Under the pieces are notes generated by a model. That model did no database searches. It was not told where the DNA came from and saw only the letters and a list, made by a program, of their open reading frames with translations. From a candidate division WOR-3 bacterium (lineage in GTDB: Bacteria > Hydrothermota > UBA3073), in NCBI GenBank assembly GCA_034722095.1, contig JAYENM010000169.1:1-51508 (forward strand): a DNA stretch of 51,508 nt, read 5' to 3'. The position numbers were made by a program, and so were the translations under genes. Shown here one piece after another: positions 24,337 to 48,142 of this stretch (the stretch's first letter is position 1; every line of letters begins with the position of its first letter).

Positions 24337-24358
24337 GCATCCCGCCAAAACGGGATGC
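24337..24358 (-). other. 8-bp GC-rich hairpin between the TonB receptor and the next gene (possible intra-operon attenuator/processing site)
   Basis: GCATCCCG-ccaaaa-CGGGATGC is followed by a second imperfect palindrome, GTACGAATT-c-AATTCGTGC, at 24308-24326. Confidence 0.35.
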
Positions 24359-24367
24359 CTACAAAAT

Positions 24368-27028: not shown

Positions 27029-27063
27029 TTTTAATTTTATGGCGGGTTCTCCTTTCCTCTAAA

Positions 27064-28887: not shown

Positions 28888-28955
28888 GTTTCTCACCTCC
28901 TTTCGTTGCTTCAATCTCCCTCAGATAGAGGGGTCTTAAGGAGGACCCGCCATTA

Positions 28956-29951
28956 TTAACAACCACAGGACTTTCTTACAACTAGTCCTGTCTTAAGTAT
29001 ATTTCTTCTTCTTACATTCCTACCTTCCAGTATCCGTATAACACTCTTTACCGCCGTAGTACCAAGTTCATACATTGGCAGATGAACAGTCGTCAAAGGA
29101 GGAGTGACAAGCCTTGAAAGTTCTATATCGTCAAATCCGACTATCGCTATATCCTTCGGAACAATAAGCTTTCTCTTTTTAACTGCCTCCATAGCACCAA
29201 TGGCCATAGGATCGTTGGCAGCAAACACAGCATCCGGGGGATTAGCAAGATCAAGAAGTATATGCATAGCACTTTCACCCCCTTCCCATCTGAAGTTACC
29301 ATCTACTATATAGCCTGGATTTAGTTTTATGTTATAATCCTTAAGTGCAGATGTGTATCCGGCAAGTCTTTGAGATGCATCATAATTGTCAGAGGGACCC
29401 CCTATAATTGCAATTCTTTTATATCCATGCTTTATAAGATGTATTACCGCCTGATATGCACCCTGAAAGTCATCTATTACTATATAATTACAATTTATAT
29501 ATTTAATTTTTTTACATAATACAATAATAGGAAAACTATTCCACTGAAATTCTGTCAAAAAGTCATCACTGAGGGTAGGATCCATCAGGATTAGACCATC
29601 CACCCTCCTCTCGCTCATAAGTCTAAAGGACAACTCTTCGTCACTTCGATGACTATGAAATGTGGACACAAGGAGATGGAAATTGTTCTTTACAGCCGCT
29701 TCATCGGCACCCTTGATTACCTGAGAAAAGAAACCATCCGCGATTTCAGGAAGTATAAGCCCAATAGTACGGGTCTTGCCAAGAGTTAATCCTCGCGCCA
29801 TGACGTTCGGCACATACTCCAACTCCTTTATCACCTTATCTACTCTCTCCCTTGTGTCTTGTCTTACCCTTGGATACTCATTTATTACACGAGAAACAGT
29901 GGTTACAGATACTCCTGCTTTCTCTGCTACCTCTTTTATCGTTCCAGGCAT
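28956..29951 (-). CDS. LacI-family transcriptional repressor
   Basis: It has the N-terminal HTH IKEVAEKAGVSVTTVSRVINEYPRV followed by a periplasmic-binding-protein-like sugar-binding fold of 331 aa. Confidence 0.9.
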   Translation of the reverse strand: MPGTIKEVAEKAGVSVTTVSRVINEYPRVRQDTRERVDKVIKELEYVPNVMARGLTLGKTRTIGLILPEIADGFFSQVIKGADEAAVKNNFHLLVSTFHSHRSDEELSFRLMSERRVDGLILMDPTLSDDFLTEFQWNSFPIIVLCKKIKYINCNYIVIDDFQGAYQAVIHLIKHGYKRIAIIGGPSDNYDASQRLAGYTSALKDYNIKLNPGYIVDGNFRWEGGESAMHILLDLANPPDAVFAANDPMAIGAMEAVKKRKLIVPKDIAIVGFDDIELSRLVTPPLTTVHLPMYELGTTAVKSVIRILEGRNVRRRNILKTGLVVRKSCGC

Positions 29952-30105: not shown

Positions 30106-30134
30106 TTGACTTTTAACCTATTTAGTGCTATAAT
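30106..30134 (+). promoter_or_regulatory. sigma70-type promoter of the kinase-EBP gene (TTGACT-N17-TATAAT)
   Basis: TTGACT is at 30106-30111, the spacer is exactly 17 nt, and TATAAT is at 30129-30134. The pattern is the same as at 2633-2661. Confidence 0.55.
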
Positions 30135-30286: not shown

Positions 30287-33200
30287 ATGAGCAATAATCG
30301 TTATAAAATACTTAAGAAAGTCGGTTCAGGTGGAATGGGCATTGTCTACAAAGTTCTCGATACACAAACCAACACACACCTCGCCCTCAAAACTTCCTCC
30401 AGCAAGCATATCAAAAATGAATTTCTGACACTCTCAAAACTTCACCATCCAAATATTGTAAAAGTCTACGACTTCGGAGTTATGGAGTGCAATCCGCCTC
30501 AGGCGGATGTTGTTGCAGATACGACCTTATCACAGCATTCCAAACAATACTTCTTCACTATGGAGTACATTGAGGGTAAAAATTTGTATGACCTGTTTAG
30601 AGATAATCTACCCAAGACCAGAGCTGAGTATCAACTTCTTTACTCCATAATACTCCAGATCTGTGATGCACTCAGGCTCATTCATTTTCACAAACTTATC
30701 CATTGTGATATCAAACCCAGCAATATACTGATACAATTCTCCGAAACTCAGGAACCCAGAACTGTTATAACAGACTTCGGACTTATAGAGAAAGAGGCAG
30801 CCCAAAAACTCAAGGGCACTCTCCAATACATCGCCCCTGAAGTTCTCAAGGGCGAGAAAATCGATCAAGGTGCAGACCTCTTCTCCCTGGGTGTGACCAT
30901 CTATCAGGTACTAACACATCATCTTCCCTTTGCGGGTGGTAATGCTCTCACTCTTATCAAGCAACATACAAAAGATAAAATAAAACCACCAAAGGAATTC
31001 AACCCTGCAGTACCGGGAAGGTTAAACGATTGTACCTTGGATCTTTTGCAACCCAAACCTCGAAGAAAAACTAAGTCCATAGATGAACTTAAAAAATTTA
31101 TCCATCAAATCTCAGGAAAATCTCAGTTAGCCACTGTCTTTACATCCCTACTGATAGGCAGGCAAAAGGAACTTTCCATCCTTAAAACTACCTGGCAGGA
31201 AGTTAAAACTAACAAGGGTAGGGCTATCTTACTATACGGTGAAAATGGAATAGGAAAGACGAGACTCTTGCAGGAGTTTAAGCCCTACGCCCAAACCGAA
31301 GGAGCACTGATAAAGGAATTCGATTCGAGAAGAAACATTCTAAAAACTTTTACTGATATTATTGAGCAAAAACCCCTTGGCGGAAAGGAGCTAAGCCTGT
31401 TTGAGAAAATAACAAACAAACTCCTGAACGAAGCAAAACAATCCCCACTCCTTCTCGTAGTCGAAGACCTTCAGTCCCAGGGAGAGACTGCCCTTAACTT
31501 GATGGAGTATCTTATAAGGTCTATTGGATCTGCTCCAATTCTTTTAATCATCACTTCTTCGGATACAAAACTCATTAGCAAAGATGTGCAATCCATAAAT
31601 TACCTTAACCACATCAATCTTATACCCCTCAACCCACATGATACTACCACACTGGTCAAGTCTATGCTCTTAACAGATAACAAGGTGAAAGACATCGGGA
31701 CTCTAATTCATACCCATACCGAAGGAAATCCCTTCCTCATCACGACATTTACACGAAGCCTGGTAGAAAACAAAATTCTTGAAAGAACCAAAGGAAAGTG
31801 GACTCTATCGGGCGATAAGCTAAAAACCTATCAGGCTCCAAAAGACATCAAAGACTTCATAGCCCCTGCCTTAAGAGGATTAAGTGAGGATGAATTTAAT
31901 CTGTTAAAAATAGGGACTCTCCTCAAAAATTACTTTATCCTTCCTGTTCTAAAGGACATAATCAGCGTAAAAATCCATACTCTCTACAGTCTCCAGAAAA
32001 AAGGCCTTATCATAGAAAAACCTGCTGAAAACTACTCTTTTACCCATCAAATGGTCTCCAATGTGATTGAAAAGAATATACCTGTCAGCGAAAGAGTTTC
32101 ACTTCATAGAAAAATAGCCAGCATACTGGAACATCGGTTTCAGCAAAACCTTGAGAGAATAGCCCCTGACCTCACTTATCACTATTCACAGGCAAATGAA
32201 ACTACCAAAGTATACAAATTTGCTCTCCTGTCTGGAGAAAGGGCAAAAAACACATCGGCAAATACGGAAGCAGCGGAATACTTTGAACTTGCACTATCTC
32301 TTGCCGACAAATTGGGTAGAAAAAGAAAGAAATTCACCCTTTATGAAACCCTCGGTGATCTCTATCGCACTATGAGCAAATATCAGGACGCCCTCATAAA
32401 ATATGAATCCGCTCTTCCTCTTGTAACCGATGATTCCTGTACAAGAATTTACAGAAAAATAGGAATGATATACAGAGACCAGCAAAATTATGACAAGGCA
32501 CTGAATTACTTTCAGAAAGGATTTAAGGTGCCCTCCAAAGATGCATCTCAAAAGGTGCTCCTCCTCAGTGACATTGGATGGGTTCATATGTGCCTCGGAG
32601 ACCTTAACAAATCCCTGTCTTACTCTCAAAAAGCAATCAAAATGGCAGAAGAATACAATGACCAATTTGGCTTGAGTTATACCTATAGCACTCTCGGTAC
32701 ACTCTGCTTCCAGAAAAGCAACTACGAAAAAGCAATGCAATATTACAGAAAAACACTAAAGGTCGCTAAGAAAATTAAGAATCAAGACATCATTGAGTCT
32801 ACCTCATACAACCTTGGACAAATCTCGTGGAAAACAGGAAAACCGAAGGAGGCAGAGAACTTCTACAAAAAGGGCCTAAAAATCCAAGAAAAAAAAGGCA
32901 ATCCTCATATTCTTGCCCGATATTATAACGCCCTTGGAATCCTCGCGCAAGAACAGGGAGATTTTGATAACGCCCTGACACATTATACATCAGCCCTTGA
33001 TATATTCAAAAGAATAGGAAACAAACAAAGAATAGCCACAGTCCACATGGCACTGGGTACTATGTACCAGGAGAGAGGCGACTTAGACAATGCAATTGAT
33101 AACTATAAAGCAGCCCTTTTGATATCTCAGGAGACAAAAGACACGCCTCTAATTGCACGGATATACAATAACCTTGGTAATCTCTACAAGGATACAGGGA

Positions 33201-35365
33201 ATTTAACAAAGGCAATCAAAAACCTTGAAAAAGCCCTCAAAATTGAGAAGCAAGGCTCGGATTGGAGAGATACAGCATCTACCCTGCACAATATAGGAAT
33301 AGTCCGTATGCTCCAGGGCAAGATGGAGGATGCTTCCAAATTCCTTCACCAGAGCTTCCATCTTCACCAGGAACAGAAATCAAAGAAAGGAATGGCAGAG
33401 GTATGTCCAACTTTGGCTGAATATTATTTGCTTACAGGCAACATCACTACTGCCGAAGACTACTGCCTGAAAGGGATTAAACTGTGTGAAGAAATCAATG
33501 ACTACCTATATCTCGGTATTACCCAAAGGGTCCTTGGCACTGTATACTCCCGGAAAGCAGAAATGGATAAGGCGCTCATCTCTTACTCCAAATCCATAGA
33601 GACTCTAAAAAAGTTGAAGACAGAACACGAACTCGCCAAAACCCTCCTTATTGCCGGAGAAGAGGTCTTTTCTAATAGAGGAAAAATAGGTAGAAAATTC
33701 TGGCGAGAAGGGCTTCTTGACCAGACCTTAACAAGACTAAAACAAGCAAAGCAAATATTCAAAAACCTGAATGCAAGTGCAGATTTAAAGAGAGTGAATT
33801 CTCTGATTTCGAAACTTGAAAAATATTCCCCCCTCATCCTTGAACCCATTCCTGGAGAAGACAAAAAACTTAAGACCCTTTACAGAATGAGCCAAATAGT
33901 AAACTCAACAATGGAGATAAATGAGCTGCTTGAAAAAATACTGGACCTCACCATTGAAACTATGGAAGCAGAAAGAGGCTTCATACTACTGAGAGAAGGA
34001 AAAGAACTTATGGTAAAAACCGCCAGAAATATGGATAAACAATCAATTGCTGATATGTCAGACTTTTCAAAAACCATAGTGGAGAATGTAGAAAAGAAAG
34101 GCGAGCTGATAATCACTTCCAATGCCCAGACAGAGCCAAGATTTAAAGATAGGAAGAGTATAGCCAAATTCAAACTCCTTTCAATTCTGTGCGTTCCCTT
34201 TAGAATTAAGGACCATGTCGTTGGTGCCATCTATATTGATGACAGAAGAAAAAGAGATGCCTTTACCTCAGAAGACCTTGCATTCCTTCGAGCCTTTTGT
34301 GATCAGGCTGCCATAGCTCTCGAAAACGCCAAGTTAATAGAAGAACTAAGGACCGCCAACAAACTACTTGAACTCGAAAATATTGATATGCAAGACCAGA
34401 TTACTCATCTAAGAACCGCCGTGGAAGAAAGATATAGCTTTGGTAACCTGATAGGAAAAAGTGAACCAATGCAAAAGGTATACGATGCCCTTGAAAAAAT
34501 CATCAAATATGACTCCTCTGTAATAATTGAGGGTGAAACAGGGACAGGTAAGGAGATTGTTGCCAATATCATCCATTATAACGGACCCAGAAAGGACAGG
34601 AATTTTATCGTTGTAAATTCAAGTGCTATACCAGAGGAACTCCTTGAATCAGAACTATTCGGCTATGTAAAAGGAGCATTCACTGGGGCCACCCACGATA
34701 AGCAGGGACTCTTTGAAATAGCAGACGGTGGAACTATCTTCTTCGACGAAATTGCAGAATTAAACCCAAATCTCCAAGTCAAACTACTAAGGGTTCTTCA
34801 GGATGGTGAACTGCGAAGGGTTGGAGCCACAAAAAGTAAAAAGGTTGATGTAAGAGTGATAGCAGCAACCAACAGAGACTTACAAAGGCAAGTAAAACAG
34901 GGAAAATTCAGAGACGACCTCTACTACAGGTTAAATGTAGTGTCAATCAAGATGCCCCCTCTAAGAGAAAGAAAAGAAGATATCCCAGTTCTTGCAGCTT
35001 ATATCCTTCGCAAATTCAGAAAGAAACTCCACAAGAATGTAACCGGGTTTACACCAGAAGCCCTTTATCTCCTTCAGAACTACCAATGGCCAGGTAATGT
35101 AAGAGAACTCGAGAATGTCATAGAAAGGGCTATTGTTATGGCAGAAGGTAAAAAAATCACCGAGAAAGATTTGCCAAAATCATTAACTCAAGGAGAACCT
35201 GGCGAAGAAAAAGAAACCACCCTTCTCTGTTCCCTTGTCGATATAGAAAAGAGATGTATCAAGACAGCTCTTAAAGCCTCAGGAGGTAACAAGAGAGAGG
35301 CAGTAAAGTTACTTGGTATATCAAGACCAACCCTCGATAGAAAGATGAAAAGATACGGTTTATGA
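30287..35365 (+). CDS. 1692-aa fusion: Ser/Thr protein kinase + STAND/AAA_16 P-loop NTPase + long TPR array + GAF + sigma54-interaction AAA+ domain + Fis-type HTH (bacterial enhancer-binding protein)
   Basis: Kinase motifs are GSGGMGIVYKV, LALKT, HCDIKPSNIL (30701-30724), ITDFG and YIAPEVL. The P-loop is LLYGENGIGKTRLL (Walker A at 31238-31261). TPR_12-like repeats span roughly 32.2-33.7 kb (for example YNNLGNLYKDTGNLTKAIKNLEKALKI). GAF covers about 33.9-34.3 kb. The EBP core has GETGTGKE (34532-34555), ESELFG and an intact GAFTGA (34673-34690). The C-terminal HTH is REAVKLLGISRPTLDRKMKRYGL. Confidence 0.85.
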   Translation: MSNNRYKILKKVGSGGMGIVYKVLDTQTNTHLALKTSSSKHIKNEFLTLSKLHHPNIVKVYDFGVMECNPPQADVVADTTLSQHSKQYFFTMEYIEGKNLYDLFRDNLPKTRAEYQLLYSIILQICDALRLIHFHKLIHCDIKPSNILIQFSETQEPRTVITDFGLIEKEAAQKLKGTLQYIAPEVLKGEKIDQGADLFSLGVTIYQVLTHHLPFAGGNALTLIKQHTKDKIKPPKEFNPAVPGRLNDCTLDLLQPKPRRKTKSIDELKKFIHQISGKSQLATVFTSLLIGRQKELSILKTTWQEVKTNKGRAILLYGENGIGKTRLLQEFKPYAQTEGALIKEFDSRRNILKTFTDIIEQKPLGGKELSLFEKITNKLLNEAKQSPLLLVVEDLQSQGETALNLMEYLIRSIGSAPILLIITSSDTKLISKDVQSINYLNHINLIPLNPHDTTTLVKSMLLTDNKVKDIGTLIHTHTEGNPFLITTFTRSLVENKILERTKGKWTLSGDKLKTYQAPKDIKDFIAPALRGLSEDEFNLLKIGTLLKNYFILPVLKDIISVKIHTLYSLQKKGLIIEKPAENYSFTHQMVSNVIEKNIPVSERVSLHRKIASILEHRFQQNLERIAPDLTYHYSQANETTKVYKFALLSGERAKNTSANTEAAEYFELALSLADKLGRKRKKFTLYETLGDLYRTMSKYQDALIKYESALPLVTDDSCTRIYRKIGMIYRDQQNYDKALNYFQKGFKVPSKDASQKVLLLSDIGWVHMCLGDLNKSLSYSQKAIKMAEEYNDQFGLSYTYSTLGTLCFQKSNYEKAMQYYRKTLKVAKKIKNQDIIESTSYNLGQISWKTGKPKEAENFYKKGLKIQEKKGNPHILARYYNALGILAQEQGDFDNALTHYTSALDIFKRIGNKQRIATVHMALGTMYQERGDLDNAIDNYKAALLISQETKDTPLIARIYNNLGNLYKDTGNLTKAIKNLEKALKIEKQGSDWRDTASTLHNIGIVRMLQGKMEDASKFLHQSFHLHQEQKSKKGMAEVCPTLAEYYLLTGNITTAEDYCLKGIKLCEEINDYLYLGITQRVLGTVYSRKAEMDKALISYSKSIETLKKLKTEHELAKTLLIAGEEVFSNRGKIGRKFWREGLLDQTLTRLKQAKQIFKNLNASADLKRVNSLISKLEKYSPLILEPIPGEDKKLKTLYRMSQIVNSTMEINELLEKILDLTIETMEAERGFILLREGKELMVKTARNMDKQSIADMSDFSKTIVENVEKKGELIITSNAQTEPRFKDRKSIAKFKLLSILCVPFRIKDHVVGAIYIDDRRKRDAFTSEDLAFLRAFCDQAAIALENAKLIEELRTANKLLELENIDMQDQITHLRTAVEERYSFGNLIGKSEPMQKVYDALEKIIKYDSSVIIEGETGTGKEIVANIIHYNGPRKDRNFIVVNSSAIPEELLESELFGYVKGAFTGATHDKQGLFEIADGGTIFFDEIAELNPNLQVKLLRVLQDGELRRVGATKSKKVDVRVIAATNRDLQRQVKQGKFRDDLYYRLNVVSIKMPPLRERKEDIPVLAAYILRKFRKKLHKNVTGFTPEALYLLQNYQWPGNVRELENVIERAIVMAEGKKITEKDLPKSLTQGEPGEEKETTLLCSLVDIEKRCIKTALKASGGNKREAVKLLGISRPTLDRKMKRYGL

Positions 35366-35370
35366 TAAAG

Positions 35371-35387
35371 TGTAACGTTTTGTTACA
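35371..35387. promoter_or_regulatory. candidate enhancer (UAS) palindrome A: TGTAAC-gtttt-GTTACA
   Basis: The extended perfect 9-bp arms are AAGTGTAAC/GTTACACTT (35368-35390), 3 nt after the EBP stop codon. It could double as a weak terminator hairpin because TTTTT follows. Confidence 0.55.
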
Positions 35388-35490
35388 CTTTTTAGAGAGT
35401 TAAGACTAATCCTCCCTTCAGGGAAATTTCTCCCAACTCCTTAAAAAGGCATAACTTGTGAAAATTCGACAAAACTGACGACAAGAGAAA

Positions 35491-35507: not shown

Positions 35508-35522
35508 CTTTTTTGATGGAAA

Positions 35523-35539
35523 TGTAACAAAATGTTACA
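35523..35539. promoter_or_regulatory. candidate enhancer (UAS) palindrome C: TGTAAC-aaaat-GTTACA
   Basis: It is identical to site B and 32 nt (about 3 helical turns) downstream. It lies 103 nt upstream of the sigma54-type promoter. Confidence 0.6.
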
Positions 35540-35625
35540 CTTTTTTGATAACAAAGAATAACACTCTTCTAAAGGGATTTTGTAAGTCCTTACAAATGCA
35601 GCCATTACGCAAGTTCTCGTTCAAT

Positions 35626-35642
35626 CTGACACGCTTTTTGCT
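35626..35642 (+). promoter_or_regulatory. sigma54-type (-24/-12) promoter, CTGACACGCTTTTTGCT
   Basis: It matches TGGCACG-N4-TTGCW at every conserved position and in spacing, except that the second G of the -24 GG is A. The identical 17-mer recurs at 42311-42327. It lies the right distance downstream of palindromes next to an EBP gene. Confidence 0.55.
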
Positions 35643-35684: not shown

Positions 35685-35834
35685 ATGAGTAAATTTCTAA
35701 AAAAGTTGTGCTTGATGGCAATAGCACTCATCCTTGTCCTATTAACAGCCACTATGGCATTTGGAGGTAACATCCACCCACCAATTGACCCTCGACCACC
35801 CACAGTTTATGGTATTGGCGGTAGTGGCAGATAA
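35685..35834 (+). CDS. 49-aa secreted pre-peptide (not in the ORF track): MSKFLKKLCLMAIALILVLLTATMAFGGNIHPPIDPRPPTVYGIGGSGR
   Basis: I translated it by hand. A consensus SD AGGAGGTG (35671-35678) lies 6 nt before the ATG. The peptide has a Lys-rich n-region, a 15-residue hydrophobic core and an A-x-A-like TMA|FG site, then a Pro/Gly-rich tail of about 23 residues. TAA is at 35832-35834 and a strong hairpin follows immediately. Confidence 0.65.
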   Translation: MSKFLKKLCLMAIALILVLLTATMAFGGNIHPPIDPRPPTVYGIGGSGR

Positions 35835-35839: not shown

Positions 35840-35875
35840 AAGGGAGGGTGCAGAACCCCTTCTTTACCCTCCCTT
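35840..35875 (+). terminator. intrinsic-terminator-like hairpin after the peptide gene
   Basis: The perfect 10-bp stem AAGGGAGGGT (35840-35849) pairs with ACCCTCCCTT (35866-35875) around a 16-nt loop. TGTATCTTT follows, which is a modest T-tract. Confidence 0.55.
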
Positions 35876-36207
35876 TGTATCTTTGCGTTATACGACACAG
35901 ACAGGCAATTTTTGACAGTTAAGCCAGTGCTATCTTGGGGTATATACGATTTGCCCGATTCATATTTGAAATTGTCTTTTGTGGTCAAAGTGATATTTTT
36001 TATCATTTGTGGTAGTGTCAAATAGAATATGAAAGAATATGACAAACCACAGTCATACGACCCGTCCTTACGGATCCGTATGGATATGGGAGGTCACAGA
36101 GTAAATTTAATTCTCTGTGCTCTCCAAAAGAGTTTCCTCTGAAAGATAAAACGGAAAAGATAATTGCCTGTGCTATTGAAGTCCATTCAACTTTAGGTCC
36201 AGGTCTG

Positions 36208-36597
36208 TTGGAGAGTGTTTATGAGGAAGCGTTGGCGTATGAATTTGAGTTGAGGGGAATAAATTTTGAAAGGCAAAAAGAGATTATGCTTGAGTATAAA
36301 GGGAAAAGCATAGGTCCGCATCGGATAGATTTTTTAATAGAAGAACAGGTGATATTAGAGATAAAGGCAACAGAGGGAATGAAGAAGATATTTGAGGCAC
36401 AGGTTTTAACATATATGAAAGCAATAAAGAAAAAAGTGGGACTACTTATAAATTTCAATGTAGAAAGGTTGAAAGACGGGATAAAAAGATTGGTCTTATC
36501 CGTGCGGATCCGTATGAATAAGAGGTCACAGAGGGGAGGGAAAAGAATCTTTTGTAATTCCTTAATACTGAACATTCTCTGTGTTCTCTGTGGTTAA
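36208..36597 (+). CDS. GxxExxY-family protein (PD-(D/E)XK-like), lacking a canonical start and with a repeat-encoded tail
   Basis: The family hallmark GPGLLESVYEEALAYEFELRGINFERQKEI...HRIDFLIEEQVILEIKA is present. Homology (KTEKIIACAIEVHSTL) extends upstream of the track's TTG start to about 36139. There is no ATG, GTG or TTG in frame after the stop at 36040-36042, only CTG. The last 30 or so codons are translated from the flanking repeat. Confidence 0.6.
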   Translation: MESVYEEALAYEFELRGINFERQKEIMLEYKGKSIGPHRIDFLIEEQVILEIKATEGMKKIFEAQVLTYMKAIKKKVGLLINFNVERLKDGIKRLVLSVRIRMNKRSQRGGKRIFCNSLILNILCVLCG

Positions 36598-36634
36598 ATT
36601 TTTGACAATACTTCATTTGTAACTGGGGGATATT

Positions 36635-37041: not shown

Positions 37042-38256
37042 ATGGAGAAAAATTTAAACATATCGGTTTCTTCCTTTTGTGAAGGAAAATCCGCAAAGAT
37101 ATTGACCAACATCAACGAGAGTAAGCACACAGAGGACGAGTTACATAAAGTTAACCGTGCACTTAAGCTCCTCAGTGAATGCACCCAGGCCGTGTTGCGT
37201 GCTGTGGAGGAATTGGAAGTGCTGGATGAGATATGCCATATCCCCGGTGAATGCAATCAGGCAGTGCTGTGTGCCGTGGAGGAATCGGAGCTACTGCATG
37301 AGGTATGCCGAACCATCGTGGAAGTCGGCGGATATCGAGTGGCATGGGTTAGTTCAACCGAAGAGGATAAAGATAAGACCGTGCGACCTGTGCTGTTGGC
37401 GGGATACGGGAAGGATTACCTTGACATAATAGACATCTCAAGGGTAGATACTGAAAGTGGTAGTGGTCCCACCCGCAGAGTTGCACTTCCTTTGATTGCT
37501 CACGGTCAGACCTTAGGTGTACTTAATATCTATGCCGCCGAGCCAGATGCCTTTGACCCACAAGAAGTGAGTCTGCTGACAGAACTGGCAAATTACCTGG
37601 CGTATGGCATCTCTTCCCTTAGAGATTGCTCTGAACTTAAGCAGGCTGAGGAGACACTGATAAAATCCCACCAGGTATACGAAAAACTCGTTAATACCAT
37701 TGATGGTATCGTATGGGAAGCAGATGCACAAACCCTCCAATTTTATTTTGTCAGCAAGCAAGCTGAACGACTTCTCGGCTATAGTACCCGATGTTGGCTT
37801 AAAGAAGCTGCATTCTTCGAGAACCATCTCCACCCGGATGATCGGGAACGGGTCATTGCCCTTTTGAAGAAAACAGCCGCAGAAAAGAAAACTCACGAGT
37901 TTGAATTCCGAATGTTAGCAGATGATGGACGCCCTGTGTGGCTAAGAAATACTTTCACCGTGTTTGTTAAGGACGATAAACCCATTAGGCTATGCGGAGT
38001 GATGATGAACATCACGGAACGCAAAAGGTTGAAAGAGATCATAAGAAAAGCCTATGAGCAGATAGAGCAACATATTGAGCAGTTTGCTATTTTAGTTGAG
38101 GGAACAAAAAATCCTCTGGCGGTAATAGATGGCTTAGCCAGATTAAAAGGCGATGAAACATCAAAAAAGATAAACAAGCAGGTTGAAAGGATCGAGAAAA
38201 TATTAAAACGGATTGATAGTGAATGCCTCGACACGAGAAGGTTAGAGATTTTTTGA
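37042..38256 (+). CDS. GAF-PAS sensor protein without a recognisable catalytic output domain
   Basis: GAF is marked by LLHEVCRTIVEVGGYRVAWVS...LPLIAHGQTLGVLNIYAAEPDAFDPQEVSLLTELANYLAYGI. PAS is marked by VNTIDGIVWEADAQTLQFYFVSKQAERLLGY...HPDDRERV...WLRNTFTVF...GVMMNITERKR. The C-terminal coiled coil has ILVEGTKNPLAVI where a HisKA H-box would sit, with no His, and there is no HATPase domain. Confidence 0.7.
   Translation: MEKNLNISVSSFCEGKSAKILTNINESKHTEDELHKVNRALKLLSECTQAVLRAVEELEVLDEICHIPGECNQAVLCAVEESELLHEVCRTIVEVGGYRVAWVSSTEEDKDKTVRPVLLAGYGKDYLDIIDISRVDTESGSGPTRRVALPLIAHGQTLGVLNIYAAEPDAFDPQEVSLLTELANYLAYGISSLRDCSELKQAEETLIKSHQVYEKLVNTIDGIVWEADAQTLQFYFVSKQAERLLGYSTRCWLKEAAFFENHLHPDDRERVIALLKKTAAEKKTHEFEFRMLADDGRPVWLRNTFTVFVKDDKPIRLCGVMMNITERKRLKEIIRKAYEQIEQHIEQFAILVEGTKNPLAVIDGLARLKGDETSKKINKQVERIEKILKRIDSECLDTRRLEIF
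37175..37309 (+). repeat. in-frame 72-nt tandem duplication inside the sensor gene
   Basis: GTGAATGCACCCAGGCCGTGTTGCGTGCTGTGGAGGAATTGGAAGTGCTGGATGAGATATGCC (from 37175) aligns with GTGAATGCAATCAGGCAGTGCTGTGTGCCGTGGAGGAATCGGAGCTACTGCATGAGGTATGCC (from 37247). In protein terms this is ECTQAVLRAVEELEVLDEIC / ECNQAVLCAVEESELLHEVC. Confidence 0.85.
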
Positions 38257-39311: not shown

Positions 39312-39330
39312 ATTTTGATGGGAGGGTAAA

Positions 39331-40350: not shown

Positions 40351-40493
40351 CCAAAGAACAGGATTTATCTATAGTTTTGGCGGGAGATTTGGGAAGGTCT
40401 TTTATTAACCCGGAAGGTTAAACCGGGGTATCCACTCTGGAATACCACGTCTCGCTTTTAATAAGCGCTAAATATTTTCCAAATTTGTTTTGA

Positions 40494-41608: not shown

Positions 41609-42055
41609 AGAAATTGCCAATAATGAGGTAGAACTGAAATAAAATATTACCTCGCCTAGCTATCAGGATGTCTGTTGAATATGGGGACGGTTCTTTTTTT
41701 CTTGACACCTTGCATTTATGGTAGCACTATTGCATAGTGCTCCATTTATTGATAACATTTTGTTCTTATCTATGGATCTGATAGATTTATAGCTGATATG
41801 GAGAGAAAATACGAAGTCAAGAAATTCCCTGCCCCGTGGAGTTAGTTTTGCTACTCCACAGGGCAGGCCAAAGAAGATATGAAAAACAGTCCGAAAAAGA
41901 GAACCGTTCCCATTACAGTCCACACCCATTACCCATTACATTCAAAATAGGGGTAACTCCCCCAAGTGGAGCCTCTAAAACCTTTATGGACATTGGGCTT
42001 AGAAATATTAAACAGTCATAACTTGCGAAAATTTGATAAACCAGTAGTTTAAAAG

Positions 42056-42072
42056 TGTAAAATTTCTTTACA
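42056..42072. promoter_or_regulatory. variant enhancer palindrome A': TGTAAA-atttc-TTTACA
   Basis: The extended arms are AAGTGTAAA/TTTACACTT (42053-42075). Its relative position is the same as site A of the first module. Confidence 0.5.
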
Positions 42073-42175
42073 CTTTTCGGGGTGTTATGGCTAACCTTTC
42101 CTTCAAGGGGATTTCTCCCAAGTCCTTAAAAAATCAAAACTTGTAGAAATTCGACAAAATTGGCAGTCGGAGGAG

Positions 42176-42192
42176 TGTAAAGTTTCTTTACA
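42176..42192. promoter_or_regulatory. variant enhancer palindrome B': TGTAAA-gtttc-TTTACA
   Basis: It lies 120 nt after A', exactly as B lies after A in the first module. Confidence 0.55.
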
Positions 42193-42207
42193 CTTCCATC
42201 AAGAAAA

Positions 42208-42224
42208 TGTAAAGATTCTTTACC
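42208..42224. promoter_or_regulatory. variant enhancer palindrome C': TGTAAA-gattc-TTTACC
   Basis: It lies 32 nt after B' and 103 nt before the promoter. These are the same spacings as in the first module. Confidence 0.5.
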
Positions 42225-42310
42225 ATTTTTAGGTCGCCATGACTGCCCCCTTTAGAGGAATTTTTTTCAAATCCCTGTCAGTTCACGCATTACGTAGATT
42301 CTCATTCTTT

Positions 42311-42327
42311 CTGACACGCTTTTTGCT
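42311..42327 (+). promoter_or_regulatory. second sigma54-type promoter, CTGACACGCTTTTTGCT
   Basis: The 17-mer is identical to 35626-35642. Confidence 0.55.
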
Positions 42328-42589: not shown

Positions 42590-44869
42590 ATGTATCTTTT
42601 TATTATAATTCAGTTATTCCTTTCACCAGTCTGGGAGACACACGGACCCTATGGAGGAGAGACTATATGCATTGCCATAGACCCAAATAAAACTCTCTGT
42701 ATGTATGCGGGGACAGGGAATCCTGAATTAATAACAACGAATGGAGACGGTGTTTATGTAAGCACAGACGGTGGAGAAAACTGGAACCATACCTCACTCG
42801 GCTCTACTTTTGTTTGGGATATTGCAGTTGATTCTCATGGAGAAGTGTATGCTGCTACTCGTGGGTATGGAATTTTCAAGAGCACAGACAGAGGCACCAC
42901 CTGGAATTCAATAAATAACGGACTGTCATGTCTATATATATCTGATATTGCTATTGAGCCTCTCAATGACAGCGTTGTCTATGTAGGGACCGGAGACAAG
43001 TTTTATGGTAGTGTGTGGGATTGGTCAATGGATGGTATATACAAATCTACAGATAGAGGAGAAACCTGGAGTAGACTGGGACTGGACGGCACGACTGTAT
43101 CTTCCATTGTGGTGCATCCTGTGGCGCCAGAAACTCTCTATGCAGCGGTATATGATGTACCATGGGATAATACATCAAGTGAAGTAGGGATTTACAAGTC
43201 CTGCGATTACGGGGTTACCTGGATGTACAAAGCAGATATAGCTGCGAATGATTTAGTTATAGATCTGGTAAATCCCAATACAATTTACGCTGCCCCCAAG
43301 TGGGATTGGGATCACTTCTGGAAAAGCACGGATGGTGGAGAAACCTGGACATACTGTTATATGGGTATTTTTACGAATGAAATACGGACAATAGCGATTG
43401 AGCCATTCAACGACAGCATTATCTATATGGGTTGTGCCTCATATCCCACAATGGATGAAAAATTCGGTGGTATTTATAAATCTATAGATGCAGGGGATAC
43501 ATGGAGCGAAGTGATGGTAGGTATGCCAGACGAGCCTGTACATTCTATTGTTATTGGTATTGACAATCCCGATAAGGTCTATGCTACATGCAGTGGTCCT
43601 GGGGTGTATAAAAGTGTTGACAAGGGAGAAACCTGGGCATGGTCGTCTAATGGTATGAGGCTGCAGATAGTGACAGATTTGAGTTCGGCAAACGAAGACA
43701 TCTTTGCTGCGACAAGGTCCGGCGTATATAAAAGAGAGAGCTCAAGTGAAGTGTGGCATAATCGGAGCTCTGGGATAAGACAGGTTAGGACTATGTGCAT
43801 CGCTGCCGCGCCGTCTGCACCTGATACTATTTACCTCGGCACATTTGTCGGTGCGGGACCAACGCCATCTTATAGAAGTTTTGATGGTGGGGAGACTTGG
43901 ACCGGGTGTGCAGGAGGAGGAATTTGTCATATCCAGGTTAATCCTCTCAATCCCAGTGTATACTATGCTGTAGAGAAATTCAATTTTAGAAAAGTTTACA
44001 AATCAACTGATGCAGGCTCCACTGTGACCACTACCTTGGATACCACTAGTCCCGGATGTGTAGCAATAGATCCTGTTGATACAAACATAGTCTATGTAGG
44101 TGGCGGTTCTGGCAGCGCATGGGTTCTCAAAACTGTTGAGGGGGGCACAAGTTGGATAAGTATCTCCCAAGGGTTGGATTCAGGATTTGTCTGCGATATA
44201 GAGTTAGATAATTTCAACGAGGACATCCTCTATGCCGTTGTGAATGCCGATCTCTTTGGATGGGAAGGTAATGGAAAACTCTTCAGGTATAACGGAGATT
44301 TATGGGAAAGAGTAGGGGTTGATCTCCCAGAATTGCCATTCTCCTCCCTTAAGGTGGATCCAGTACTTCAGAGTGTTCTGTATATTGGCACCTATGGAGG
44401 AGGTGTATACAGAAGCATTGATGGAGGGATAGTGTGGAATGAGTTGAACGAGGGCCTCGGGAACCTCTTTGTAAACTGTATCATGTTAGACCCTCTCGAC
44501 CACACGAAGATATATGCAGGAACTAATGCCGGTGTATATTCAATCACCTCTCCCCCCGGTATTGAGGAAGAGAGTGCTATTACTCTCTCTCTTCTCACGG
44601 TCTCTCCAAATCCCTTCAGCACAACTACCGCTATCACGCTATCAGACTATCAGGCTAACGCTTCACGCTTTACGCCTTACACCTTACGCATCTACGACCT
44701 CACAGGCCGCCTCGTCAAACGATTTACGATTTTCGATTCACGGCTTACGAGTATAGTCTGGAATGGAAGAGATGACTCTGGCAATTCTTTACCTCCAGGG
44801 GTCTATTTCGCAAGACTTGAATCTGGAAAGACTGAATATAAAGCTGAGAAGATTGTAAAATTGAGGTAA
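42590..44869 (+). CDS. BNR/Asp-box (sortilin/Ycf48-like) beta-propeller protein with T9SS sorting domain
   Basis: At least 11 Asp-boxes are present: STDGGENW, STDRGTTW, STDRGETW, SCDYGVTW, STDGGETW, SIDAGDTW, SVDKGETW, SFDGGETW, STDAGSTV, TVEGGTSW and SIDGGIVW. The tail is VSPNPFSTTTAI...IYDLTGRLVKRF...GVYFARLESG...KIVKLR. The N-terminus MYLFIIIQLFLSP lacks a basic n-region. Confidence 0.8.
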   Translation: MYLFIIIQLFLSPVWETHGPYGGETICIAIDPNKTLCMYAGTGNPELITTNGDGVYVSTDGGENWNHTSLGSTFVWDIAVDSHGEVYAATRGYGIFKSTDRGTTWNSINNGLSCLYISDIAIEPLNDSVVYVGTGDKFYGSVWDWSMDGIYKSTDRGETWSRLGLDGTTVSSIVVHPVAPETLYAAVYDVPWDNTSSEVGIYKSCDYGVTWMYKADIAANDLVIDLVNPNTIYAAPKWDWDHFWKSTDGGETWTYCYMGIFTNEIRTIAIEPFNDSIIYMGCASYPTMDEKFGGIYKSIDAGDTWSEVMVGMPDEPVHSIVIGIDNPDKVYATCSGPGVYKSVDKGETWAWSSNGMRLQIVTDLSSANEDIFAATRSGVYKRESSSEVWHNRSSGIRQVRTMCIAAAPSAPDTIYLGTFVGAGPTPSYRSFDGGETWTGCAGGGICHIQVNPLNPSVYYAVEKFNFRKVYKSTDAGSTVTTTLDTTSPGCVAIDPVDTNIVYVGGGSGSAWVLKTVEGGTSWISISQGLDSGFVCDIELDNFNEDILYAVVNADLFGWEGNGKLFRYNGDLWERVGVDLPELPFSSLKVDPVLQSVLYIGTYGGGVYRSIDGGIVWNELNEGLGNLFVNCIMLDPLDHTKIYAGTNAGVYSITSPPGIEEESAITLSLLTVSPNPFSTTTAITLSDYQANASRFTPYTLRIYDLTGRLVKRFTIFDSRLTSIVWNGRDDSGNSLPPGVYFARLESGKTEYKAEKIVKLR

Positions 44870-44890
44870 ACAAAATCAGAGGAGGTTTAT

Positions 44891-47800
44891 ATGCTTAAGA
44901 AAATAGCAAGTATTATACTGGCGATAGGTTTTGCTCATATCGTCTTTGCCGATGTAACTCATAATGTCTATTTCTCATCATCGGATTTGACCTTCAGACA
45001 GGAGAAGGGATACGACATCGTGGAGTTAAAGGGATGCAACCTGATGGATGTGGTTGGCGAGCCCATGCTTTCTGTAAGATATATGAACCTCATTATCCCA
45101 GCGGGAAATAAGGTATCCAGAATAGAGTTTCCATTAGCCAATTCACAAAACATAGGAACCTACAACATCTATCCAGCGCAGCCACCAATCCCTGTAAGTA
45201 GTAGTGAACCGCCTGAATGGGTGGAACCAGACCCTCTTGTGTATAGTTCTGACGAACCCTATCCAGGCAAACTCGCAGAGGTTGTCCATGAGGGATATTT
45301 TAACGGGAATAAGATTGTGATGCTTGCGGTCTATCCACTCCAATGGATGCCAAGCACTGGAGAGCTCGTGTTGTATGACCACATACAGTTAAGACTCGTG
45401 TTGGAATCATCATCCGAAACTCCAGTCTATCCACAGATTATGACCGAGCAGAGTTACAAACTCTATAAATCTGCGTTGAGTTCGTTGATTGCAAATGACA
45501 AAGACAAGAGTGCCTATGGATATGAACCTACTGTTGTGACTCCACAGTCTGCTCCTGCTGAGTTTATACTACCTGCATCTTCTACAGAGATAATAGAGTA
45601 TATGATAATTACCCCCAATGCACTCACCTCATCTTTTAACTCTTTTGTGGAATGGTTATGGAAGAAGGGGATAAGAGCAGGGATTATCACTGTAGAGGAT
45701 ATACTTGCTTCATATCCTGGGGTTGACGATGCCCAGAAGGTGAAGAGATGCATCTGGAAGTGGTGGCAATTTAACTCTCTCACTTATGTGCTTCTCGCTG
45801 GAGATGATGGTATTGTACCTTTTAGATACGGTTGGGCCAGGAATAATCTAAATTTTCCACCACAGACTCGCGTAGATTCATTTTATATCATTCCTACTGA
45901 TCTTTACTTCTCGGATCTTTCTGGCAACTGGGATGTTGATGGAGACAATCGCTGGGGTGAGCCAGAAGATAGTATTGATATATATCCTGAGGTATATGTA
46001 GGGAGAGTGTTGGTACGGAACATGGAAGAAGTTAACAACTGGTTACAGCGGGTGTTGAATTACGAGCGAAATCCAGGAAATGCGTCTCTTATGAAAGATG
46101 TTATGTGGAGTTATCAAGAATATGACCCAGATACATCACATATGGGAGGAAATTTCATCAACTTTCAATTTCTTGTTAATCAGGCTATAGCGCATTTTCC
46201 TGAAGACTATACCCATTATCATTATTATGCTATGAGCTCCACTGAGAATCTATCTGGTCTGAATGAGGGATACGGGCAGGTATGTCTTTACGCCCACGGT
46301 TGGCCAGATAGATGGACAACGAGAACCTGGCCTGTTAGTTGGGTGTTTTCTTGGCCATCCGCTGGTGGCGGAGACCTGTACCATCTCTCTAATCCAAACA
46401 AGTATGGTGTTGTGTATTCAATTAGTTGTATGAATGCAATGTTTGATAAGATCTTGGAGGATGTTTGGCATTGCGAGGATACTACAATTGCAGATGGATT
46501 TACAGATGCTTATACAAATGGAGGCGAAGCCGCCTTTCTTGGAAACAGCAGATACGGATGGTCCCATACCTCTCCTTCTCTTCACCGGTGTTTTCTGGAT
46601 GTTCTATTCAATTCAAGCGACCTGTCTTCCAAGGTTGGATATGCTGAGGGAATATCCAAAACTCTTGGTGGGTCTAGGTATGTTTGGTATTCTCACAACC
46701 TGTTTGGCTCTCCGGAGACTCCTGTCTGGACTGATGTGCCACCACCTTTGACAGCAAGCCATCCATCCCGATTATATGTGGATCCAGAGATTACTCTGCT
46801 CCTCACTGTAACGGTTACATCTAATGGAAGTCCTGTAGAGGATGCTCTTGTTTGCCTATACAAGCCTTCAGATGATCCAGTAATTTACAAAAGAGGCTAT
46901 ACCGATGCAAATGGTGAGGTCACTTTTGATCTCCGTATTCGAAACACGGGATATCTATATGTTACTGCGACCAAACACAATTTCAAACCTTACGAAGGTA
47001 GAATTCTGTGCACCTACCCTCCCTGTCCCTTTCTCTATACCTATAATGGTTCAGAATTCATAGAGGATAACAATATCCTTTCAGGTTCTGGAACTGTAGA
47101 AGATTGGTATAAGCTGAGGGAGAAACCCCTTAAAGATGAAAATAGATATAGGTTACAGATAAAGGAGAATAACGATGAGCATTCATTCTTTGACAGGGTG
47201 AGACTTTATGCTATTGACCATCCAGACTCTGTTGAAGTATTCGTGACACAGGATGGAGAGATTGTCTCCGTTTCTATGATGTCCGCTTCTCAATCAGTTA
47301 TTGGGGAGGATGGAGTTGATTATACTACAGTGCTTCTTGACAGAGATAGTGTATGGGTTGAGGCAAATGAGGTTGAAAAGATCACCGCTGAATTTGGAGG
47401 AACTAATGGAGGAGACTACGTCATACTCGCACCACCAGGGCCGAAGCCAAGACTTATGGTTGAAGAAGCAAATGGTTCAAGTTTTGAAACTGTCGGTTCC
47501 ATTCGTGGAAGAGAGAACCCATCCTATGAGGTGCTTCCTCTTACAGTTTCATCTCCCGAGGAGGTGAGCCTGAGATTCACATTCACTGATGTCTCCCAGA
47601 GACTTGACTATATACGGTTTGGGAAGAGAAACAATGCTCCATATCATATAAAACCCTGTCCACTTGTGGCTGCTACCCACTCTGACATTGGTTCTGTCAA
47701 GCAGAAACTACTTATTGATGATGAGAACTATGCAGAACTTCTTCCCTGTGATACGATAACACTTGAGTTTGCAGTTGTTGATATAGAACCTGGATGGGTG

Positions 47801-48142
47801 AGAGATTTTGTGTTTGTATCAAATGGATATTATGTAACAGAAGGCAAAGGCGGTTCACAGACTGCATATAGCAGTATTCCTTTGGTTCATTCTCTATCAC
47901 TATATCCAAATCCAGCAAAGAATGATATGAATATCAGATTTGGTATACCGAGAGAAGAGAAGGTCTCTCTTAAAATTTATGATGTATCAGGCAGAGAGGT
48001 AAAGATGCTTGTAGATGACAGACTTGAAGCAGGTTATCATATTATAAAATTGGATAGTGAGAATCTTCCCTCTGGCATCTACTTCGCAAGGCTTGTGACC
48101 AATAACTATGAGGCGACAAAGAAGCTCGTGCTGATGAAGTAG
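44891..48142 (+). CDS. peptidase C25 (gingipain-like cysteine protease) with propeptide, unknown C-terminal module and T9SS sorting domain
   Basis: It has a signal peptide and a C25 propeptide-like N-terminus (FRQEKGYDIVELKGC...GEPMLSVRYMNLIIP). Other markers are YMIITPNALTSSFNSFVEWLWKKGIRAGIITVEDI, YVLLAGDDGIVPFRY, FSDLSGNWDVDGDNRWGE, the His region VCLYAHGWPDRW and the Cys region VVYSISCMNAMFD. The tail is YPNPAKNDMNIRF...IYDVSGREVKML...GIYFARLVTN...KLVLMK. Confidence 0.8.
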   Translation: MLKKIASIILAIGFAHIVFADVTHNVYFSSSDLTFRQEKGYDIVELKGCNLMDVVGEPMLSVRYMNLIIPAGNKVSRIEFPLANSQNIGTYNIYPAQPPIPVSSSEPPEWVEPDPLVYSSDEPYPGKLAEVVHEGYFNGNKIVMLAVYPLQWMPSTGELVLYDHIQLRLVLESSSETPVYPQIMTEQSYKLYKSALSSLIANDKDKSAYGYEPTVVTPQSAPAEFILPASSTEIIEYMIITPNALTSSFNSFVEWLWKKGIRAGIITVEDILASYPGVDDAQKVKRCIWKWWQFNSLTYVLLAGDDGIVPFRYGWARNNLNFPPQTRVDSFYIIPTDLYFSDLSGNWDVDGDNRWGEPEDSIDIYPEVYVGRVLVRNMEEVNNWLQRVLNYERNPGNASLMKDVMWSYQEYDPDTSHMGGNFINFQFLVNQAIAHFPEDYTHYHYYAMSSTENLSGLNEGYGQVCLYAHGWPDRWTTRTWPVSWVFSWPSAGGGDLYHLSNPNKYGVVYSISCMNAMFDKILEDVWHCEDTTIADGFTDAYTNGGEAAFLGNSRYGWSHTSPSLHRCFLDVLFNSSDLSSKVGYAEGISKTLGGSRYVWYSHNLFGSPETPVWTDVPPPLTASHPSRLYVDPEITLLLTVTVTSNGSPVEDALVCLYKPSDDPVIYKRGYTDANGEVTFDLRIRNTGYLYVTATKHNFKPYEGRILCTYPPCPFLYTYNGSEFIEDNNILSGSGTVEDWYKLREKPLKDENRYRLQIKENNDEHSFFDRVRLYAIDHPDSVEVFVTQDGEIVSVSMMSASQSVIGEDGVDYTTVLLDRDSVWVEANEVEKITAEFGGTNGGDYVILAPPGPKPRLMVEEANGSSFETVGSIRGRENPSYEVLPLTVSSPEEVSLRFTFTDVSQRLDYIRFGKRNNAPYHIKPCPLVAATHSDIGSVKQKLLIDDENYAELLPCDTITLEFAVVDIEPGWVRDFVFVSNGYYVTEGKGGSQTAYSSIPLVHSLSLYPNPAKNDMNIRFGIPREEKVSLKIYDVSGREVKMLVDDRLEAGYHIIKLDSENLPSGIYFARLVTNNYEATKKLVLMK

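Follow-up and report, generated by a model that had tools for sequence, protein, structure and literature searches.

A Ser/Thr kinase–STAND–TPR–GAF fusion to a sigma-54-type activator in a WOR-3 bacterium and the putative enhancer–promoter module behind its gene

A 51,508-nt stretch of DNA from a candidate division WOR-3 bacterium (GTDB lineage Bacteria; Hydrothermota; UBA3073; assembly GCA_034722095.1, contig JAYENM010000169.1, positions 1 to 51,508 of the forward strand; hereafter, the window) carries the gene for a 1692-aa regulator. A Hanks-type Ser/Thr kinase, a STAND nucleotide-binding domain, a TPR region, a GAF domain, the AAA+ core of a sigma-54 enhancer-binding protein (EBP) and a Fis-type helix-turn-helix (HTH) domain follow one another on its chain. 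Domain identity, motif integrity and conservation, and the conservation of the sites, their spacing and the putative target genes were established in silico. Based on these data, the regulator is probably a soluble cytoplasmic sigma-54 EBP, in which a NifA-like output is fused to a PknK/MalT-like STAND module, and all four inputs (kinase, STAND, TPR and GAF) would act on the sigma-54 output. Directly behind its stop codon lies a conserved module of three palindromes and a -24/-12-type promoter element, followed by a gene for a small secreted peptide.

Domain anatomy and family of the regulator

The regulator gene, the domains of its product and its candidate promoter are located in the window as follows:

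30287..35365, + strand: kinase-STAND-TPR-GAF-EBP-HTH regulator gene, ATG start, 1692 aa
30287..31111, + strand: Hanks-type Ser/Thr kinase domain, residues 1-275, non-RD (HCD), from Pfam and motifs
31151..31549, + strand: STAND nucleotide-binding domain (AAA_16), residues 289-421, Walker A GENGIGKT, Walker B LLLVVED
32207..33691, + strand: TPR sensor region, residues about 641-1135, five TPR_12 stretches and TPR_MalT
33911..34324, + strand: GAF domain, residues 1209-1346, from Pfam
34448..35218, + strand: sigma-54 AAA+ core plus lid, residues 1388-1644, GETGTGKE, ESELFG, GAFTGA, IFFDEI
35234..35356, + strand: Fis-type HTH_8 DNA-binding domain, residues 1650-1690, from Pfam
30106..30134, + strand: candidate promoter of the regulator gene, sigma-70 type, TTGACT-17-TATAAT, -10 preceded by TG, consensus match only

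A sequence-only reading of this region had proposed a six-part fusion on one polypeptide, in the order Pkinase, AAA_16, several TPR_12, GAF, Sigma54_activat and HTH_8. Using Pfam, all the named domains were recovered from the 1692-aa translation in the same order. The matches were Pkinase (residues 6-242, E 8.7e-42), AAA_16 (residues 289-421, E 1.7e-17; 64.8 bits vs. a cut-off of 32.6), five stretches of TPR_12 (E 5.9e-67) with TPR_MalT in the same region (E 3.4e-29; 102.6 bits vs. a cut-off of 45), spanning residues about 650-1135, GAF (residues 1211-1345, E 6.4e-16), Sigma54_activat (residues 1388-1554, E 5.2e-72; 241 bits vs. a cut-off of 20.2), AAA_lid_14 (residues 1560-1644, E 5e-30) and HTH_8 (residues 1650-1690, E 6.4e-14). 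All of the scores far exceed the curated cut-offs. No match to LuxR/GerE was present among the 25 best of 47 Pfam families, and the C-terminus is formed by GAF-EBP-HTH_8. A transmembrane-like segment was not found in the regulator, the highest 19-residue Kyte-Doolittle mean being 1.46.

The catalytic signatures had been described as intact, and a motif search located those of the kinase and of both P-loop domains, as well as GAFTGA and ESELFG. The kinase motifs are GSGGMGIV (residues 13-20), LALK (K35), HCDIKPSN (139-146), DFG (163-165) and APE (183-185). In the STAND domain, Walker A GENGIGKT occupies residues 318-325, and Walker B LLLVVED was read from the translation. The EBP core contains Walker A GETGTGKE (1416-1423), ESELFG (1454-1459), GAFTGA (1463-1468) and Walker B IFFDEI (1484-1489). 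Its arginine-finger and sensor II regions, FRDDLYYRL and PPLRERKEDI, were matched by eye to the PspF/NtrC1 pattern, and the alignment of the regulator to the PspF and NtrC1 chains spans this part. The earlier comparison of the protein with PknK/MalT-like regulators joined to an EBP agrees with Pfam, the motifs and the alignments to PDB chains. The promoter candidate of the gene, about 150 nt upstream of the ATG, has 11/12 consensus matches.

The closest relatives of the regulator are full-length and colinear with it at 100% coverage (91, 90, 83, 75, 72, 68, 55, 54 and 51% identity). They originate from about nine independent assemblies (NCBI, ENA, JGI, Logan) labelled Candidatus Stahlbacteria or candidate division WOR-3. 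An assembly or gene-calling artefact, in which two or three neighbouring genes were fused by a chimeric join or a frameshift, has a negligible probability, given that the domain order is identical in 68 homologs. The GC content is uniform across the ORF (0.39-0.40), and together with the independent colinear orthologs it therefore excludes a chimeric join.

For the family alignment, the query was combined with 68 full-architecture homologs (69 sequences). The GK[ST] of the STAND P-loop is present in about 64/69, and Walker A and B of the EBP are invariant (69/69). GAFTGA is canonical in 52/69, including all WOR-3 orthologs, and the 17 remaining, more distant members carry E[EK][KR][TV]ATGV in its place. 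The latter subgroup includes the homologs at the loci L088 and L091 (loci and proteins of the comparison are given by L and P numbers). Each of these loci (L088 9387-10973, L091 8375-10153) has, after a peptide gene, a gene for a stand-alone AAA+ protein of 247-256 aa without an HTH, which matches Sigma54_activat plus lid and has no obvious GAFTGA; the next gene encodes an HTH_11-WYL/WCX protein. This arrangement may represent an activator made up of two proteins or a variant that is independent of sigma-54.

To estimate the breadth of the family, the kinase and the EBP were found together in 68 of the best 120 clusters at 90% identity, under the names of WOR-3, Zixibacteria, 'Deltaproteobacteria' and 'Pseudomonadota' metagenome-assembled genomes. 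In addition, residues 560-1692 served as the query of an exhaustive HMMER search over 1.84 billion representatives at 50% identity. E was <= 2e-126 for all of the best 150; 105 of them had a length of 1500 residues or more and a C-terminal EBP, and 71 fitted the strict pattern of an N-terminal Hanks kinase plus ESELFG. Thus counted, the full architecture is present in at least 71, and probably in about 105, of these 150. The architecture is a large, diverse, recurrent and unstudied branch of EBPs and not a one-off.

EBPs are usually described with receiver, PAS, GAF, V4R, PRD or FHA inputs. The word "unusual", applied to the fusion by the sequence-only reading, holds in so far as the protein departs from these textbook inputs and neither a curated model nor a paper was found for it; it does not hold for the frequency of the architecture, which recurs in 68/120 and at least 71/150 clusters. 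Likewise, of the suspicion that such proteins might be common and already characterised, only the first half was borne out, with no curated family or paper found. The existing names are generic ('sigma 54-interacting transcriptional regulator', 'Nif-specific regulatory protein'), NCBIfam yielded no model for the whole protein, and the literature searched yielded no description of a kinase-EBP fusion. The myxobacterial kinome of Perez et al. (2008) is said to list, perhaps, kinases with sigma-54-activator domains.

The same N-terminal scaffold (23-28% identity over 59-84% of the query) was also found with other output ends, namely HisKA/HATPase (P0071-73, P0078, P0080-82), GGDEF (P0077), GGDEF together with an EBP (P0018, P0043, P0045, P0049) and SpoIIE/PP2C (P0079). 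A split form exists at L090 (3001-9852), where a gene for a 1283-aa kinase-AAA_16-TPR protein is directly followed by one for a 1211-aa protein opening with three GAF domains. The adjacency of the split genes, a Rosetta-stone-type arrangement, supports a functional link between the kinase-STAND-TPR half and the GAF-containing half. At L089 (1-2855), an Anaerolineae homolog with a His-kinase end adjoins genes for ScmC, an ECF sigma factor and a PqqD-like protein (recognition of ribosomally synthesised and post-translationally modified peptides); with the partial match of the regulator to TIGR03903, this neighbourhood hints that the scaffold may be tied to peptide natural-product loci. L063 (Planctomycetota), considered as a full-length relative, turned out to be a composite of separate matches and was dropped. 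A defence-system reading was also rejected; PADLOC gave only domain-level matches, to generic kinases (PD-T4-6, mad6) and to RtcR/PspF AAA+.

Palindromes, promoter element and genes of the module

The following sites were found in the two intergenic modules of the window:

35368..35390, no strand: distal palindrome AAGTGTAAC-GTTTT-GTTACACTT, putative enhancer site 1, starts 6 nt after the stop codon
35488..35510, no strand: palindrome AAATGTAAC-AAAAT-GTTACACTT, putative enhancer site 2
35520..35542, no strand: palindrome, putative enhancer site 3; spacing 32 bp to site 2 and 103 bp to the -24 element downstream
35626..35642, + strand: -24/-12-type promoter element CTGACACGCTTTTTGCT, GA for canonical GG
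42053..42227, no strand: paralogous putative enhancer, three A/T-type palindromes TGTAAA-N5-TTTACA, identical 120 + 32 bp spacing
42311..42327, + strand: second CTGACACGCTTTTTGCT copy, 103 bp from the proximal palindrome

Sites 2 and 3 lie at +120 and +152 relative to site 1. The palindrome pattern has 6 matches in the window vs. 0.48 expected, all of them in the two intergenic regions, and the CTGACACGCTTTTTGCT-type pattern has 2 matches vs. 0.03 expected, only in the same two regions. The region 42.05-42.33 kb is a paralog of the first module, 77% identical to it, in which both half-sites have been altered symmetrically. Compared with the sigma-54 consensus TGGCACG-N4-TTGCW, CTGACACGCTTTTTGCT has a sole mismatch, at the second G. 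Scanning the window for canonical TGGCAC-N5-TTGCW with up to 2 mismatches gave 17 matches vs. 18.9 expected, which is the chance level, and only the two identical intergenic matches with 1 mismatch were informative.

The palindromes were also considered as hairpin terminators, and this was rejected, since phased groups upstream of a promoter element fit operator sites better. The T-run after each palindrome mirrors the preceding A-run, which makes the site a symmetric one of 23 bp. The first palindrome may still aid termination of the regulator transcript. Rfam and tRNA scans of the window gave no match; therefore, the intergenic modules are not known RNA genes.

The same module, with two or three palindromes, is present after the regulator stop codon in the orthologous loci L001 and L003 (90% identity), L092 (83%), L002 (75%, with two tandem modules), L084 (55%), L085 (54%) and L081 (51%). 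L085 has a second, divergent module upstream of the regulator. Based on 25 sites from ten modules, the palindrome consensus is AAGTGTAAC-N5-GTTACACTT, 23 bp. In the ten modules the two proximal palindromes are spaced 30-33 bp, and the distance from the proximal palindrome to the promoter element is 103-105 bp, while the intervening sequence diverges; in the divergent L085 module the spacing is off by about one helical turn. Position 9 of the palindrome co-varies with its mirror position (C/G in 15 sites, A/T in 7, T/G in 3). The recognition helix ISRPTLD[RK]K is found in all module-bearing WOR-3 orthologs, where the GTAA core of the palindrome is kept, and differs in paralogs with other palindromes (GTTAC-N5-GTAAC at L087, GTCAA-N4-TTGAC at L086).

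The -24/-12-like elements of the WOR-3/Stahlbacteria loci all follow the pattern TG[A/T]CA[C/T]-N5-TTGCT:

Window: 35626-35642 and 42311-42327
L081: 11152-11168 and 14318-14334
L084: 10255
L085: 4794 (minus strand) and 10115
L087: 9569

The genes and the hairpin that follow the two modules are:

35685..35834, + strand: 49-aa ORF MSKFLKKLCLMAIALILVLLTATMAFGGNIHPPIDPRPPTVYGIGGSGR, signal peptide plus Pro-rich tail, with the ribosome-binding site (RBS) AAGGAGGTG in front
35840..35883, + strand: GC-rich hairpin AAGGGAGGG...CCCTCCCTT, then a T-rich tail; kept in L001 and L003
36635..36988, + strand: conserved 117-aa protein, no family assignment, syntenic with the peptide gene
37042..38256, + strand: GAF-PAS protein, 404 aa, after the 117-aa gene in Stahlbacteria loci
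42590..48142, + strand: genes after the second module, for a BNR/sortilin-like protein (759 aa) and a Peptidase_C25 protein with a type IX secretion system (T9SS) sorting tail (1083 aa)

The peptide has the Pro-rich tail MSKFLKKLCLMAIALILVLLTATMAFG/GNIHPPIDPRPPTVYGIGGSGR, and the hairpin behind its gene is likely a terminator or an attenuator. A small ORF of 45-60 codons with an RBS is retained in seven loci. At L003 (6952-7134), the peptide has 60 aa, not 49, with the in-frame triple repeat PRPPGV-PRPPGV-PRPPGI. At L081, the place of the small ORF is taken by a gene for a secreted protein of 253 aa whose N-terminus is similar. Compared with L001, the nucleotide identity is 92.4% for the regulator gene, 93.1% for the non-coding module, 82.7% for the peptide ORF, 97.5% for the 117-aa gene and 94.1% for the GAF-PAS gene. 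The peptide ORF has 26/150 differences, distributed 9/7/10 over the codon positions (binomial P = 1.8e-5 vs. the 7.0% local background). Because its identity of 82.7% contrasts with 92-97% in every neighbouring segment, the peptide is a local divergence hot spot within the conserved locus and its fastest-diverging segment.

Downstream, a protein of 107-120 aa without a family assignment is encoded in all module-bearing orthologous loci, with the GAF-PAS gene next to it in the Stahlbacteria loci. A word-indexed search found 4 close homologs of the 117-aa protein; its distant syntenic copies (L002, L081, L084, L085) were recognised by position only. An AlphaFold2 model built from 5 sequences (predicted local distance difference test score 44.7, predicted template modelling score 0.39) was too poor for a fold search. 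Between the peptide and 117-aa genes, the window contains an insertion of ~615 bp (36015-36625) with a gene for a PDDEXK_3 (GxxExxY-type) protein (ORF 36208..36597). It is absent from L001 and L003, has the internal direct repeats GGATCCGTATGGATATGGGAGGTCACAGAG / GCGGATCCGTATGAATAAGAGGTCACAGAGG at its flanks and resembles a mobile insertion of small size.

Extra copies of the module stand ahead of genes for single-domain CheY-like receivers at L085 (4794-4920) and L002 (7449-8310). The L085 copy is the divergent one upstream of the regulator, and the L002 copy is the second tandem module. Judging by these positions, the regulon would seem to include receiver proteins in two lineages. The regulon is likely extracytoplasmic, comprising the secreted peptide and T9SS cargo, plus the single-domain receivers in L002 and L085. 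Such content agrees with the link generally drawn between sigma-54 and the cell exterior (PMC3162934).

Proposed mechanism and alternative explanations

From the above, we infer the following mechanism with respect to DNA binding, sigma-54 dependence, STAND and GAF gating and the role of the kinase. The first step would be the binding of HTH_8 dimers to the phased 23-bp palindromes AAGTGTAAC-N5-GTTACACTT, which begin 6 nt past the stop codon. Then, a signal at the TPR sensor would flip the STAND nucleotide-binding oligomerisation domain (NOD) from the closed to the open state, so that the protein would oligomerise and its C-terminal AAA+ domains would be gathered. The template for this proposed gating is MalT, whose NOD opening and multimerisation are driven by the inducer (PMC4381067). 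By analogy with EBPs of the NifA and NorR type, the GAF domain may restrain the AAA+ ATPase from within the same chain, as a second brake. Subsequently, the AAA+ ring would contact sigma-54 via GAFTGA, and the -24/-12-type promoter at 35626-35642 would be opened. This would turn on the genes for the secreted Pro-rich peptide and the 117-aa protein and, probably, that for the GAF-PAS protein. A further probable target is the paralogous promoter at 42311-42327, in front of the genes for the BNR protein and the C25/T9SS protease. Finally, the non-RD kinase, which would not need phosphorylation of its activation loop, may be turned on by proximity in the same oligomer and provide a second, phosphorylation output or autoregulation/feedback.

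Several observations weigh against this mechanism. No binding, ATPase or kinase data were found for any family member. The module was not found at L083, the locus of a 68% ortholog, and two palindrome types occur in one genome beside a single visible EBP. There is neither a PP2C or FHA partner gene nor an oligopeptide importer within the window. At the promoter, every WOR-3/Stahlbacteria example has GA or GT as the -24 dinucleotide and none has GG; a regular-expression search for the RpoN box on six-frame translations of the window and nine loci gave no match; and the window copy of CTGACACGCTTTTTGCT doubles as a weak sigma-70 candidate, CTGACA-18-AATAAT (10/12 in a simple scan). Nothing relevant on rpoN/sigma-54 in WOR-3 was found in the literature, and the isolate paper (PMC12285271) makes no mention of sigma factors.

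In characterised sigma-54 promoters, GG at -24 is close to invariant. Its consistent absence here, the sigma-70 match and the negative search for rpoN would all suit an element that is not used by sigma-54 at all, the regulator acting at a sigma-70-type promoter (with the TTGACA-like CTGACA/TTGTCA as the -35) or repressing from the palindromes, in the manner of TyrR-like or sigma-54-independent members of the NtrC family. We regard this explanation as rather improbable. GAFTGA, dispensable in sigma-54-independent relatives, is strictly kept in the WOR-3 orthologs; if sigma-54 were not used, the loop should decay, and its retention speaks for sigma-54 use by the regulator. TTGCT stands exactly N5 from CA[CT] in all eleven promoter instances, with no -10 hexamer conserved at a fixed spacing across them, and the putative enhancer lies at a fixed distance, ~100 bp upstream. 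Moreover, TG[A/T]CA[C/T]-N5-TTGCT is common to three palindrome classes of the clade (including the second L081 promoter and L087), which suggests a trait of the sigma factor and not of a single activator. At the same position, distant homologs from other phyla carry canonical GG elements (AGGCAT-N5-TTGCA at L088, Zixibacteria; CGGCAC-N5-TTGCA at L091), and these precede genes for small secreted Pro/Gly-rich peptides. Hence the element is most likely, on the basis of these comparisons, a clade-specific variant of the sigma-54 promoter that would accept GA/GT at -24.

The kinase could also be seen as a non-catalytic, pseudokinase-like scaffold or, conversely, as the main output with the EBP being secondary. 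HCD instead of HRD places it in the non-RD subclass, and the sole Ser/Thr between DFG and APE is the conserved structural GT Thr178, which leaves the activation segment without phospho-acceptor residues; together with the lack of a cognate phosphatase or FHA gene nearby, this would be in line with a scaffold. The residue preceding the catalytic Asp is G in 22, C in 19, Y in 7, R in 7 and S in 6 of the 69 aligned sequences, and Arg precedes it in 15/78 representatives at 50% identity, so that the HRD Arg is absent from most members and the non-RD character is a family-wide trait. However, the alignment retains K35 in 67/69, the alpha-C E45 in 68/69, the catalytic D141 in 68/69, N146 in 64/69 and the DFG Asp, as well as the Pro and Glu of APE, in 69/69. 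Conservation of the catalytic residues in 64-69 of 69 sequences would be unexpected in a pseudokinase and therefore argues for a functional kinase. The nearest PDB relatives are S. aureus PknB/Stk1, StkP and PknB. As for the kinase being the main output, the EBP part matches it in conservation, and the cis target of the EBP is conserved as well. Both variants are very unlikely.

An autoinduction loop like that of PlcR/PapR, in which the secreted peptide, after export, processing and re-entry, would also be the TPR ligand and provide positive feedback of the quorum-sensing type, would extend the mechanism. In its favour, a TPR receptor gene adjoins a signal-peptide ORF of 45-60 aa behind the regulator's palindromic boxes in 7 loci, the same pairing recurs in distant Zixibacteria-type homologs, and the fastest-evolving segment is the peptide ORF, as expected of pherotype-like diversification. 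A bacteriocin-like or structural secreted peptide would explain the fast evolution equally well. The sole ABC system in the window is of the sugar type, and L089 and L090, which have the same scaffold with other outputs, lack an adjacent small peptide gene. The phylum of the source organism is diderm (PMC12285271), so export and re-entry would require extra steps. Overall, we consider the loop unlikely. That the regulator and its diversifying peptides form an RRNPP-like system of cell-cell signalling in the diderm, uncultivated phyla WOR-3/Stahlbacteria and Zixibacteria, wired through sigma-54 and read by a clade-specific form of it that accepts GA/GT, is a doubtful proposition that we mention only tentatively.

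Wider window and comparison with known systems

Divergently from the regulator gene, a polysaccharide-utilisation-like cluster occupies the minus strand (10677-29951). It includes genes for a LacI regulator, a T9SS-tailed protein, a TonB-dependent receptor, a 1098-aa protein without a family, a PorV-like protein, an ABC sugar transporter, a GH94 cellobiose/cellodextrin phosphorylase and two glucoamylase-like proteins. Neither a palindrome nor a -24/-12 element is associated with this cluster. Next to it (8154-10588), a DUF3160 protein is spread across a pair of overlapping ORFs, 8154..9755 matching profile positions 5-398 and 9662..10588 matching positions 443-632 plus a T9SS tail; a frameshift or sequencing error is probable. 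Between the GAF-PAS gene and the second module (38712-41608), there are three successive + strand ORFs of 199, 339 and 322 aa, for which Pfam gave no match.

With regard to significance, the family brings together on one EBP chain, in little-known phyla, a STAND switch and a Ser/Thr kinase that is conserved and apparently active. It is directly testable, as it offers a 23-bp operator, a fixed enhancer-promoter distance and a defined peptide beside the regulator, and the putative sites, the putative promoter and the likely first target are conserved down to 51% identity. If the STAND module drives the assembly of the AAA+ ring, two oligomerisation-based signalling mechanisms would be linked in one protein. 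If the promoters are sigma-54-dependent, GA/GT at -24 would be a clade-wide departure from a highly invariant position, and standard sigma-54 promoter predictors would overlook these regulons.

Among known EBPs, the C-terminal part is most similar to NifA. Residues 1187-1679 align with residues 14-504 of the 528-residue chain 9qq6_C (E 3.9e-92); ZraR and NtrC1 were also aligned with the C-terminal ~500 residues. The best NCBIfam match is nifA TIGR01817 with 421.4 bits, below the equivalog cut-off of 528.85. GAFTGA, ESELFG, Walker A/B and a Fis-type HTH are common to both proteins, and the TGT-N11-ACA core of the palindromes is near the NifA upstream activating sequence, TGT-N10-ACA. The regulator differs from NifA by the 1180-residue N-terminal kinase-STAND-TPR extension and by a -24 without GG. 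No nif genes were found near it in the window, the neighbours being polysaccharide-utilisation, T9SS and housekeeping genes. The layout of the sites resembles that of NtrC at glnAp2, where two dimer sites likewise lie about three helical turns apart (30-33 bp here). The putative regulator sites have their centres some 120 and 150 bp ahead of the inferred start, compared with about -108 and -140 for the classical NtrC sites. Unlike NtrC, the regulator has no receiver input, and its module adds a third, distal site and a promoter with GA/GT at -24.

For the N-terminal part, the closest parallel is M. tuberculosis PknK, which has Pkinase, AAA_16 and MalT-like TPR in the same order and has been discussed as a STAND protein (PMC9045387). 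In contrast to MalT, PknK and AfsR, which end in a LuxR-type HTH or in nothing, the regulator ends in a GAF-EBP-HTH module, and its output would require a ring-forming AAA+ domain and sigma-54. HstK-like cyanobacterial dual kinases and kinase-STAND-GAF proteins share the N-terminal scaffold and differ in the output domain, and the TOMM kinase/cyclase TIGR03903 matches the regulator in part; among the kinase-STAND-GAF relatives, the adjacent enhancer/promoter module occurs only in the EBP-ended branch. The gene order recalls PlcR-PapR, with which it shares a cytoplasmic TPR regulator followed by a gene for a secreted propeptide of ~48 aa behind the regulator's palindromic box. PlcR-PapR and other RRNPP systems have an N-terminal XRE-type HTH, work with sigma-70 and are known from Firmicutes and their mobile elements. 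The regulator, by comparison, begins with a kinase, has its only HTH, of the Fis type, at the C-terminus and comes from a diderm phylum.

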